NCBI GenBank assembly: GCA_951406725.2
Contig: OX597826.1
Span: 12,338,001-12,402,000 of the forward strand
Direction of reading: 5' to 3'
Source: Octopus vulgaris
Lineage: Eukaryota
DNA length: 64,000 bases
The first letter of the stretch is position 1. Each line of letters begins with the position of its first letter. Shown here piece after piece: positions 40,986 to 45,788 of this stretch. A model generated the notes under the pieces. That model did no database searches. It saw only the letters and a program-made list of their open reading frames with translations, and was not told where the DNA came from. Position numbers and translations under genes: made by a program.

Positions 40986-42764
40986 TATTATGTATTTTAA
41001 AAACTCTCTCAAATCACTTAGAACAAATTTTACTGTGGTAGATACCATGAGAAAAACTCTCAGATTGATATTTGATGCAGAATGCACTCTTGTTTATATC
41101 GCTAGTGGGGGGTGATAAATCCTCGCCACCTTCAGCACCCAGACCGCCAGAACACGTGATTTCGACCTTCCTTGGCCTTATCAATGATGGACGCTTGATC
41201 GCTAGAGATAGATGGAAGTGGCGAGGATTAATCGCAACGCTAGCGAATATAAAAAAGGAGTGCGTTTTGCACCAAAAGCTAACATGAAAGTTGTTCTCAT
41301 AGTAACTACCGCAATAAAGTTTGCTCTAACAGTACATTATCGTTTAAGTGGGGATAAATATTACCTCTCTTTATTTGTTTTGTCACGATCTGTATATTCC
41401 TTCCTTCTTTCCTTCCGTCCTTCCTTCCTTCCTTATTCTAATAGCTTTCTGAAACTTGGTGACAGTGGATACCGTCCATCTTCACATTTATTTAAATATT
41501 CACGATTATATAGGATACCGTTCTAATTATGCTGGAGGCCTGCTTAATACGGTCTATACTAGATATATAATTAAATAGGTATTTGAGTTTAAAAAGTGAG
41601 TTTTATTTTCGAATGGGAACATATTAGTACTGAGTGAGTAGACCTATGGTAAAAAAACATTCTAATCATGATGTGTACCATATTTGTCTTGGATAGTGTT
41701 ATTGAGTACATCCTTGTCCAAGCAAAATTGGGAAGATTGCACTTTGAGACAGATTTGGCTGCTATGTTTAGTAGATGGATTTACATAGAAGCTCTCATAT
41801 TTACTTACTCTTCCGTTGTATACTTAGTGTATAATATTCTTTTTTTTTTTGTGTTAATATAATAGCGAGTTGTTTAGATGCACTCAAAATGCTAAACATA
41901 AGTATATAAATATATTCTAATTTGAAAAGATGAAAGTAAACAAATATATACATAAACTATTACATTAAAAGGTTACATTACTTATGTATAGTATTGTGTT
42001 GCAATGTCATTAGAAATGTTTTAGTGACACATTTGAATTATCTTTAATTTAAAATAAAAATAATAATAAAAAAGTTAAAAGAAACGTATTCATACATTAT
42101 CGAAGAGTATTTTCGATTAAACATTGAAAAAATTTCGATAACGAAAAATATTACTTTAGTTTACATTGTCTTTCATTTGCTTTTCTCATTCATAATTTAT
42201 ACATATTTTAGGTTCACACTTTACTGATTGTCAGTCAATGAGTATGTCCAATAAAATTGTCGGAGCTAATTGACAGCTGCATTTGTGATGTACATTCATA
42301 AAATCAATGGCACCTCCTTCAACAAGTCACCACAACAGAACAACTGAAAATACTTCTATTATCTTTTAAGCTTCCTAATTATAAGTCTGACAAAGTGTAG
42401 CCTCTTAGTTTCAATTGAGAAGATATTTCTGATTTTCTGAGCCTCGGGTGGCTTTGTTTCATAATTTTCTATAATCGATAATCCAAGTTCAGTGTGCAGT
42501 GCTGCAGGAGATATTAGCAAATATCGTCAAAGTATAAGAGAAAAAAAACAAGCGTTATCACACAACTACAATAGATAAAGTGTCAGCTTAAATTTAGTTA
42601 ACTTAAATACAAAATATTATTCAAATTAGAATTTCTTTCTTTTTAATGGTAGCTAAACTTAGAAATGAACGGTGAATACATTGTCAACTGTGAACAGAGG
42701 GTTCCATTCAGTCATACAAGGCCAACGATTAAACGAATAAAAATGTCATGCATTACTAAATATC

Positions 42765-42970
42765 GGTTTTAAATTTGGTACAAGGCCAGCAATTTTGGAG
42801 AAGTGGGTAAGTCAATTATATCAACCCCAGTGCTCAACTGGTAGATATTTTATCAGTCCCGAAAGGAGGAAAGGCAAGCTCGACCTCGGCGGAATTTGAA
42901 CTCAGCACGTGGAGACGGGCGAAGTACTGCTAAGCATTTTGCCTGTTGTGCTAACGATTCTGCAAGCTCG
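42765..42970 (-). mobile_element. SINE-B body (B3 tail); its head is split off to 45091-45116 by a nested insertion
   Basis: Minus strand starts at CGAGCTTGCAGAATCGTTAGC and lacks the AAGGCGG start. Confidence 0.75.
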
Positions 42971-43111
42971 ATTTCTTGTATTTAGGCACATGGCCTTTAT
43001 AAAGAGGGGACACCACAAGGACAGATCAAACAAGACATTGGGGTACATATAAAAGGCATATCGAATAGACTATGACTATGATAAATATAATGAGGATGAA
43101 ATGGCTTACTC

Positions 43112-43528
43112 GGATCTGTTCGGTTTGAACGGCAGTTTTTTCTAGCGTTGTCATATGAAATTGTCACCCATAATTATAACCCTAGTATCGATCTATTGCA
43201 TTTCAATCTGTTTTAGGGTTAGGGTTAGGGGTGGGGGGAAGGGTATCTTTTTTTTCTTCACAAATGTAAATAAACCCAATCTGTTTCTTAAACGAGGGAC
43301 ATATTCATACGGCACAGAATGTTTTTTTTACCTCAATAGACGTATTTGATTGGTTGAAATTGCAGAAATTGAAGAAAAACAACAAATATCTTACAAACTA
43401 TAGAATTTTCTCAATAAAGCCAAAAGAAAAAGCTGTTTTATAAACACATTCTACCAGTATACGGAGTTTAAAAATTTTTAGTCACCTAGAAATTATGTTA
43501 AAAACTGCCGTTCAAAACGAAAAGATCC
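43112..43528 (+). mobile_element. MITE with ~29-bp TIRs and 8-bp TSD (Merlin-like), copy 1
   Basis: TIR GGATCTGTTCGGTTTGAACGGCAGTTTTT; TSD GCTTACTC (43104-43111, 43529-43536); internal TTAGGG repeats. Confidence 0.9.
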
Positions 43529-43627
43529 GCTTACTCGCCTTCCAAAGCAAGCAGATTCATTCTACTGTTCTTTTAAAGTACAGTTCAATTTACAGTCATG
43601 TATCTTTCTTTTTTCCGTCTTCTTTTC

Positions 43628-45075
43628 TTAAACACAATTACAATATTGCATAAGATCGTCGAAAATTACAACAGGCGGCAACTCGTCGTATCTAAACTGA
43701 AGTGGTGATAGTTCAACTCTTGTTTTTCCAAACAGTTCTACTAATCTCTCCCCTATTTCTCTCTCCAATAGCACGCCCTTCTTACCTTCCGAGTTAGCCA
43801 ATTTCACTCTGATAACATTTTTCAACTTAGTAAACCTCTTTTCGATTTCAAAACTTTTTCCGTATTCTACGAGGTTTCGTAAATTTCTCCCTGTAGGTCT
43901 CAGTCTCTTCGTCCGACACAATTTCCTGTGTCTCAAATTCGCTGTCTCTTTCGTTTTCATTTTTCTGCCATGCTCTTTCTTCCTTACTAGTTGAAGGCAA
44001 CGGTTCCTGAGTTCACATTCCACTTGATTTTTTACTTGATTTTCCATTTTCTTCTTTTCTTTCTTGTTCTCTTCCTCGATGGTTTTTCTTTTTCTCTCCT
44101 TGGGGCTTTTAGGAGGTGATTCTAAATTCTTTTTTCTTTTCACCACCGTAAATTGCTCGTCCATTTTCTCCTCTCTTACAGCTGTACTCTCTTCTTGAAT
44201 TTCTGTTTCTATGATTTCCTCCACGTGTTTCTGGGGACACTTGGACTTCATGTATCTCCCTACTCTACACCCAAAATATATTGGAGGTATACCTTCCACA
44301 ACAATCCTTAATCTGGTCTATTCTGGCAACACCAGCTCTTCCACAATTTATGGAGGTCTGGTAGACTTATATGGACTATTATTTCTAGTCCATATCCCCA
44401 TGAGTTCACCTCCGTAGTCTTTGACATTTTTAAACCTTCTGCTTCTTCCTCTGTATGATAGAGGATGGATGCCACCAGCCACGCCTCGTCAATTTCAGGG
44501 GGCACTCTACATATCCTTACTCTGGCCGCACGTTTGCCACAGTAAGTAGGCAGTAGTGCCCACTCCGCTGATTTCAAGGGTACTGTGGAGTACTTCTTTG
44601 CTTCATTTTCGTTTACGCAGCGCACCTCCAACGTGCCGAACTTCTGTTCTCTGGTGTAGAATGTAGTCGACTCTTTCACTTCTTTCAAACATTCCTCTAC
44701 CGCTTCTACGGCGGCTATCCCTACTTTCTTCGACGCTGTGTTTAGCGTTCTATAGGTGATATCTCTGTTTTCCATATTCTCAATAACTTCCTTGGGAGTC
44801 GTTAGTCTGAGACTGTCTCCCTCCTTTCTCAACAAGTCCTTGTTTTTGACTTCTATTTCACGGACTTGCAGTAACTCTGCTGACAGGCTGTTGCCAGTCA
44901 TCGCAGCATAACTGCCTGTTTGCACTTGTCTAGTCTCCATAATAATGTTCTTCACAACTTCGTCCATAAATGGGAAAACAAATAAAAATTCCAACAAATT
45001 CAAGTAATAACAACAATTCAGAAATATAACAGGTTTACAGGAAGAGGACTCACATGGAGCGTACGCACTTTCCAC
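43628..45075 (-). pseudogene. L1/Tx1-type ORF1 (nucleic-acid-binding, degenerate zinc knuckle, Lys/Glu-rich tail)
   Basis: SYAA motif, RVRICRVPPEIDEAWL (RRM-like) and RIVVEGIPPIYFGCRVGRYMKSKCP (degenerate CX2CX4HX4C), joined across a frameshift near 44345. Confidence 0.7.
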
Positions 45076-45248
45076 TCAAAAACAACGACAAACGTTTTTG
45101 CCAGCTCACCGCCTTTAACGTTCTAATATTTTCTATTAACAAAACGATGCAGTGTCTACATTCGCTCAATTCTTGAATATTGTTACTTAGTATAATAGTT
45201 TAGCAATTAGAGACAAGAACAGTATATGGATACCATACATAATATCTG

Positions 45249-45490
45249 TTTCTTTATTACCCACAAGGAGCTAAACATAGAGGGGACAGACAAGGACAGA
45301 CAAGGACAGACAAACGGATTAGGTCGATTACATCGACTCCAGTGCGTAACTGGTACTTAATTTATGGACCCCGAAAGGATGAAAGGCAAAGTCGACCTCG
45401 GCGGAATTTGAACTCAGAACGTAACGGCAGACGAAATATGGCTACGCATTTCGCCTGCTGTGCTAACGTTTCTGCCAGCTCGCCGCCTTT
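45249..45490 (-). mobile_element. SINE-B full copy (B1 tail)
   Basis: Complete head, core and tail on the minus strand. Confidence 0.9.
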
Positions 45491-45788
45491 AATGCTCTAT
45501 TAATTTCTATTAACAAAACTATGCAATTCTTGAATATTGTTACTTAATATAATAGTTTAGCAATTAGAAACAAGAACATTATATGGATGCCATACATAAT
45601 ATCCTTCAGGATGATAGTGAAATCAAGAAAAATAGAAAAAGACTGACGTCCTCCCATACCTATCCAGAAGAACATAGCTCGCTTATCTTAGAAAAGTCTT
45701 GAAAGACAAACACCCTGAAAACCCCTACAATGCAAAGCATTTGCTTCCTGCAAACTTGAAAAGGATGACAATATTGGTTTAAAATTTT

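Follow-up and report, generated by a model that had tools for sequence, protein, structure and literature searches.

A broken copy of an ORF1-only non-LTR element in Octopus vulgaris, from a family with preferred insertion sites in a SINE head and an LTR

The window analyzed here, a stretch of 64,000 nucleotides of the Octopus vulgaris genome, contains a broken copy of a family of ORF1-only non-LTR elements that likely borrows the enzymes of L1/Tx1-type LINEs by means of a hairpin tail and that prefers position 11 of a SINE and position 86 of an LTR for insertion. By the lack of ORF2, by the ends and target duplications shared among its copies and by the homology of its ORF1 and 3' end with those of an autonomous LINE, the family belongs with the ORF1-present non-autonomous LINEs, which in the available text of Kojima (2018; PMC5786205) are listed from the Jockey, L1 and CR1 groups only. 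Both ORF1-only LINEs and Tx1 LINEs that target transposons are known; their combination was not found in the literature searched, nor was any published ORF1-only or SINE-targeting L1/Tx1 element in octopus, and Repbase, subscription papers or the supplements of PMC13282606 could hold one.

The element occupies positions 42971..45090 of the window on the minus strand, limits given by the family copies, the alignments of which begin at query position 1 and run to 42971. It is interrupted by a nested MITE of 417 bp (43112..43528) with terminal inverted repeats of about 29 bp and an 8-bp duplication (43104-43111 and 43529-43536), three copies of which, 90% alike, are present within the 64-kb window. 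Without the MITE and one of the two 8-bp duplicates, 1,695 bp are left, in agreement with the minus-strand unit of about 1.7 kb described in an earlier reading of this DNA made from the letters only. The unit comprises a 5' untranslated region (44968..45090, minus strand) with a shared 5' end, 14 distinct 5' junctions falling at or near base 45090; a broken ORF1 of about 446 codons (43628..44967, minus strand) with the frameshift (near 44345) and the stop (44318-44320) that had already been recognized; and a 3' tail (42971..43055, minus strand) containing a pyrimidine-rich motif, a 4-bp hairpin (42984-42996), a hexamer resembling a polyadenylation signal and a fixed end without poly(A). No match to RT or endonuclease was found in the 1,695-bp unit, as had also been stated. 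Neither of the two ORF1 pieces of the window gave a significant match in Pfam, and a homologous-protein search, itself a weak one, returned no longer relatives of the N-terminal piece. MITEs of the same family were observed as independent insertions in the 3' UTR of four element copies (window 43112-43528, L039, L041 and L053), at points 120-190 bases from the element end.

The element lies within a SINE on the minus strand, the head of which (45091..45116) and the body (42759..42970) are located on either side of it. The target duplication corresponds to SINE positions 11-28 and includes a stretch that looks A-box-like by eye; its 3' copy (42953..42970, minus strand) and its 5' copy (45091..45107, minus strand) agree at 14 of 17 bases, which bears out the claim that both flanks represent the same 17 nt of a SINE head. 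Since base 42970 can be assigned either to the element or to the target, the duplication measures 17 or 18 bp. The idea of one interrupted SINE holds as far as head and body are concerned, but the body ends in a second tail type and not in the B1 tail, and the history of the 5' flank must be more complex than was first stated, as 45091-45246 itself duplicates 45465-45603. A separate SINE-B1 copy (45241..45490, minus strand) shows a long duplication on either side (45117-45246 vs 45491-45603) and may represent a later insertion with a long duplication; this duplication, of 113-130 bp plus the SINE head, far exceeds the usual target duplication. ARAGORN and Rfam gave no match in the window region, and the tRNA origin of the interrupted SINE is presumed from A- and B-box-like motifs recognized by eye.

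In the host genome, of 2.8 Gb, DNA searches with the element body and with its 3' end yielded 422 and 137 candidates, respectively, 40 being scored in each case. The family copies showed 67-91% identity to the window copy, a common 5' start, the same end base and no poly(A); since they share a fixed 3' end, the tail belongs to the element itself. Copies with both ends are flanked by target duplications of 11-18 bp, those at other targets lie between flanks that match each other and are not SINE sequence, and in most of the 5'-truncated copies a duplication was looked for and not found. The mean pairwise identity among the SINE-site copies is 88%, indicating that this subfamily is old.

Using the N-terminal half of ORF1 as query, 12,385 candidates were obtained (autonomous copies included), of which 150 were scored. 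The presence of ORF2 was surveyed in the 77 ORF1 rows of loci L001-L202, 58 of them with at least 40% identity (one locus counted twice). An ORF2 start was found downstream of none of these 58 rows, within the 1.45 kb or more available. All nine ORF2-bearing rows showed identities of 28-38.6%, and in them ORF2 begins 604-920 bases past the anchor, a distance covered by the sequence available for each of the 58. Together with the ends shared by the copies, this result upholds the suggestion of a coding, non-autonomous ORF1-only family.

A tree of 62 ORF1 rows (midpoint root, without a formal clade test) placed the window copy and 45 of the 47 ORF1-only rows in one clade (100/99), leaving outside 13 autonomous ORF1s, two other ORF1-only rows, placed amid the autonomous ones, and one unlabelled row. 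The dN/dS values between subfamilies, calculated on ORFs selected by length, were 0.08-0.46 and mostly near 0.2, with dS often saturated. The separate clade and the low dN/dS suggest a lineage that has long been spreading while keeping a working ORF1; judged from these alignments, ORF1 is under purifying selection and has diverged from the autonomous ORF1s. The ten best protein relatives that were checked come without exception from the annotations of Octopus bimaculoides, O. sinensis or O. vulgaris, where most are labelled uncharacterized or CCHC proteins.

The ORF1 product is predicted to be an RNA-binding protein. In an intact relative of 453 aa (L093), the predicted fold (mean pLDDT 82) presents two RRMs and a CCHC knuckle and then, past a disordered linker, a long helix followed by an alpha/beta domain. 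Residues 50-217 of this model resemble proteins with tandem RRMs (best Foldseek E 3e-5; by VIA, Z up to 8.8, rmsd 2.4, 75 aligned), and the CCHC knuckle was detected with a Pfam E of 0.0085, under the cut-off. The fold searches for capsid likeness, which the C-terminal domain entered only within the whole model, were filled by RRM-type matches (residues 50-217); on the predicted structure, ORF1 appears to be of the non-LTR type and the term gag-like, used previously, fits only loosely. Searched against the autonomous loci, a profile built from the C-terminal domain of the ORF1-only elements gave nothing at E<1, although a similar pattern can be seen by eye.

Autonomous LINEs that possess a homologous ORF1 and a tail of this design do exist, as had been anticipated. 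A search with zf-RVT detected many ORF2s of 1,125-1,148 aa and, among 20 that were fetched, most have a homologous ORF1 upstream; the identity between the ORF1 of the element and those of its autonomous relatives is 25-39%. Their ORF2 contains APE endonuclease, RT and zf-RVT domains and, among solved structures, is nearest to human L1 ORF2p (E 4e-66, vs 4e-26 for R2). On the basis of these comparisons the autonomous relatives are L1/Tx1-type LINEs; the close matches to their RT included no named Tx1 reference RT, and the element itself is without RT.

The tail design common to LINEs, SINE-B1 and ORF1-only elements consists of a pyrimidine motif, a short hairpin, a polyadenylation-signal hexamer and a fixed end. 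In 17 of 23 tails the hexamer has a hairpin of at least 4 bp in front of it, vs 4.2 expected from shuffles, and the stem sequences differ. The likeness of the element tail to that of SINE-B1, on which the earlier reading relied, is above chance (score 57 for the last 85 bases, z 8.7 against shuffles), but the same bases score higher with the LINE tails of L399, L417 and L409 (76, 68, and 67), which indicates that the tail is LINE-like and shared by descent. A composite element with a tail or head derived from SINE-B was rejected, as the tail is nearer to LINE tails and non-SINE flanks match elsewhere.

With regard to the insertion sites, 41 distinct 3' junctions (identity of at least 77.5%, end reached) were obtained from 73 loci found with element DNA only. 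Twelve of them are at SINE position 11, scored in the SINE's own orientation only, eight are in a 215-bp LTR and 21 at neither. The SINE-site share of 29% (11/40 without the window copy) is above the 20% criterion of target specificity (Kojima, 2015; PMC4494074), and the excess at position 11 has a binomial p of about 5e-33 on a background of 13 SINE heads in the 64-kb window and of 4e-27 with 40 heads, so that insertion at the SINE head is not random, as had been supposed.

The second target repeat, the 215-bp LTR, has TG..CA ends and occurs in pairs 4-5 kb apart, with integrase domains between one pair. The main site of the element in it, at 86, is 28 bases past the TATA box (at 58), the transcription start being predicted from TATA spacing only. 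This LTR family is low-copy (151 candidates), and the 30 loci sampled (L341-L370) were classified by script as 15 empty, four with the element's subfamily, nine with other tails and two unclear; inspection by eye moved one of the "other" loci to the element's subfamily, one unclear locus to empty and the remaining one to LINE fragment. LINE-tailed inserts from several families are present at LTR positions 75-89 in 14/30 loci (counting the query locus and two loci that are probably duplicates). A core of six bases (window 45102-45107, minus strand) is common to the SINE and LTR sites; because it is duplicated on both sides in full-length copies, it is target DNA there.

The 3' ends of SINE-B1 follow another distribution, with 15 of 50 junctions (window and loci up to L182) at SINE position 52 and none at position 11, and a tRNA was called by ARAGORN in two of the 73 loci, which represent one genomic place away from any junction. 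Insertion of SINE-B1 at position 52 builds tandem SINE arrays. A third recurring target repeat was observed in L056, L060, L077 and L265, all of them basal copies, whose duplication measures about 17-23 bp.

The relation between the two main sites was examined in a tree of 34 copies with at least 330 aligned bases, taken from all loci, two of them found by pattern. A clade of 22 rows (100/99) contains all 12 SINE-site copies, three LTR-site copies and seven others, while the 12 rows outside include six LTR-site copies and no SINE-site copy. Fisher's test gave p 0.0018 for this confinement, a value that overstates it because the copies are not independent; the SINE label changes seven times on the tree vs 10.1 in shuffles, 13 of 500 shuffles being as low. 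With three LTR-site copies inside the SINE clade and seven changes, the shift is partial. The first junction base tracks the lineage (inside the SINE clade it is C, LTR sites included, and outside mostly A) and differs from the native base of the LTR. In its simplest reading, this pattern suggests an LTR-using ancestor with a descendant branch that added the SINE site.

The search for an ORF2-bearing LINE at the exact site of the subfamily, by junction patterns and lists of LINE tails, detected none. One junction pattern had a single match, in the element's own family, and a second had 21, corresponding to five members of the own family, 16 SINE heads without the element and no LINE; for two further patterns, 30/155 and 30/65 matches were fetched and showed no LINE tail at the junction; all 28 matches of a fifth pattern were fetched, none of them a LINE, and nine further sites gave none. 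The 16 SINE heads that resemble the element end were discarded as evidence, since they were selected by the pattern and mutation among very many SINEs could produce as many, by an estimate rather than a computation. In sister families, the ends of ORF1-only L092 and LINE L134 coincide at one site to within one or two bases, and those of ORF1-only L098 and LINE L160 to within a few. A LINE 3' fragment is located at LTR position 77, nine bases upstream of the element's LTR site, where other ORF1-only subfamilies also insert. L425, which precedes a LINE tail whose downstream sequence starts in a similar way, was considered as a link and rejected, its ORF1 being nearer to the autonomous set.

Altogether, the reading favoured here is that the element RNA is packaged in cis by its own ORF1 product and that the ORF2 of an L1/Tx1-type partner LINE binds the hairpin tail and inserts the element by target-primed reverse transcription. 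Among the targeting models, about even chances are given to the one in which a loose and short sequence motif, lying at a transcription start or immediately past it, determines the site. Landing behind the TATA box of the LTR would provide read-through transcription of the element, and the lineage may have begun on the LTR, a later branch gaining the far more abundant SINE site with the same core.

The main rival, which we regard as possible yet improbable, is that the element's own RNA sets the target, in that read-through past the 3' end into the old target would pair with the nicked new site; if so, each lineage would inherit its landing site. This agrees with junctions free of poly(A), with first downstream bases proper to each ORF1-only and LINE subfamily, with a first junction base that follows the lineage, unlike the native base of the LTR, with several non-repeat junctions that start with the core and have no upstream duplicate, and with the failure to find a LINE at the site. 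It is at odds with the core being target DNA, duplicated on both sides of full-length copies, with the lack of a complementary motif changing with the target class in the last 330 nt, and with the mixture of SINE- and LTR-site copies within the derived clade. A rather doubtful, broader proposal is that octopus half-LINEs are promoter parasites that take their landing site along, inserted in sense at the transcription starts of other mobile elements; read-through into the duplicated target would give an RNA end that chooses the next site, and a lineage could then exchange the start of an LTR for that of a SINE via a six-base match with the enzyme unchanged.

Choice by a loose motif has also been weighed against steering of the particle by the element's own ORF1, as HeT-A Gag does for telomeres (PMC5537684, as far as its accessible text goes). 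This precedent and an ORF1 that is selected and diverged from those of the autonomous LINEs lend the model some plausibility; it is nevertheless quite unlikely, as sister ORF1-only families share sites with LINEs of only about 25-30% ORF1 identity and the non-coding SINE-B1 also has a preferred site. There is equally little chance that one LINE moves both the element and SINE-B1 and prefers tRNA-like targets, which was the three-part system envisaged in the sequence-only reading. The two share tail motifs and hairpin and both insert into SINE heads, but at different positions (11 vs 52), several LINEs have tails at least as near to that of the element as SINE-B1 has, the element's site yielded no LINE, the second target is an LTR and no junction has a tRNA gene; neither the single system nor the tRNA-like preference is supported by these data. 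That the copies arose from a LINE by ORF2 deletions independent of one another, or that the tail is a separate SINE fragment, is hardly credible and was refuted in the sample examined: even if only 150 of 12,385 ORF1 candidates were scored and internally deleted LINEs occur (L425), dozens of copies have an identical ORF1-to-tail junction and end, ORF2 is missing from all 58 rows and selection is maintained among subfamilies that diverged deeply.

Strictly, the name HAL1 denotes an element derived from a mammalian-type L1 and provided with a poly(A) tail; in this sense the octopus element is not a HAL1, its junctions being without poly(A) and its ORF1 model consisting of tandem RRMs and a CCHC knuckle. 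In the available text of the sources that define HAL1 (PMC5753468) and the ORF1-present elements (PMC5786205), HAL1 (L1 clade), HeT-A (Jockey) and Ag-Sponge (CR1) share with it the possession of ORF1 only, LINE-type ends and the dependence on ORF2, which for the octopus element is likewise presumed. Unlike them, it comes from an L1/Tx1-type LINE group outside those three, presents two RRMs with a CCHC knuckle and a hairpin tail without poly(A), has fixed insertion sites within other transposons and comprises many diverged subfamilies. Drosophila HeT-A is also ORF1-only, targeted and found in head-to-tail arrays with autonomous partners; however, it goes to chromosome ends, whereas the octopus element is internal, with duplications and no evident host role (PMC5537684, accessible text).

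Tx1 LINEs that target transposons, LTR elements included, are described in the consulted part of Kojima (2015; PMC4494074), with examples such as Tx1 in Tx1D, Tx1-Mar in Mariner-N4, Tx1-8_Crp and Tx1-4_AMi in LTR elements, and SINEU passengers. The octopus element resembles them in a preference above 20%, tandem stacking, non-autonomous passengers that share the target and target duplications of about 16 bp, and differs in that the passenger codes for protein, one target is a SINE head and a single lineage inserts into an LTR as well as a SINE, by way of a core common to both. As in the stringent LINE/SINE tail pairs of PMC3747384 (in the text available), a short 3' hairpin of varying stem is common to the LINE and its passengers, but in octopus it is shared three ways, by a LINE, a SINE and a coding half-LINE. 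Regarding octopus repeats, OR1 is listed as a CORE-SINE in the accessible text of PMC4824008 and 13 recently active L1-Tx1 families were counted in O. vulgaris in that of PMC13282606, in which the terms "ORF1", "non-autonomous" and "target" are absent; L1-Tx1 is mentioned only as a class in the corresponding text of PMC8967140.

These results extend ORF1-only LINEs to a fourth group, in which the ORF1-only habit is combined with site-specific insertion into other transposons. With 12,385 first-look ORF1 candidates, autonomous ones included, the ORF1-only clade is large; it is also old (relatives in three Octopus species), and its selected ORF1 bears on why a passenger pays for an ORF1. The many lineages and targets, together with one apparent LTR-to-SINE shift, constitute a natural series in which the endonuclease, the RNA end or the promoter position can be compared as determinants of the site.

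Some additional features were observed. Hammerhead-like motifs, detected with our own descriptor, are located about 20-35 bases downstream of the ends of sister ORF1-only families and LINEs in L092, L093, L096, L098, L103, L134 and L160; an Rfam hammerhead search in four sister loci gave no match. The first bases past the 3' end vary by subfamily in one LINE lineage (L283-L312), a member of which (L296) appears by eye to be inside a SINE head in opposite orientation. In L395 and L396, two adjacent units of about 675 bp contain only a C-terminal fragment of ORF2 and the tail. Head-to-tail stacks of ORF1-only elements at one site, some with an autonomous LINE, were seen in L093, L102, L105, L110, L141, L145 and L150. 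The near-identical, internally deleted copies L162/L202 and L233-L235, at C1 21-22 Mb, are probably segmental duplicates of one insertion.
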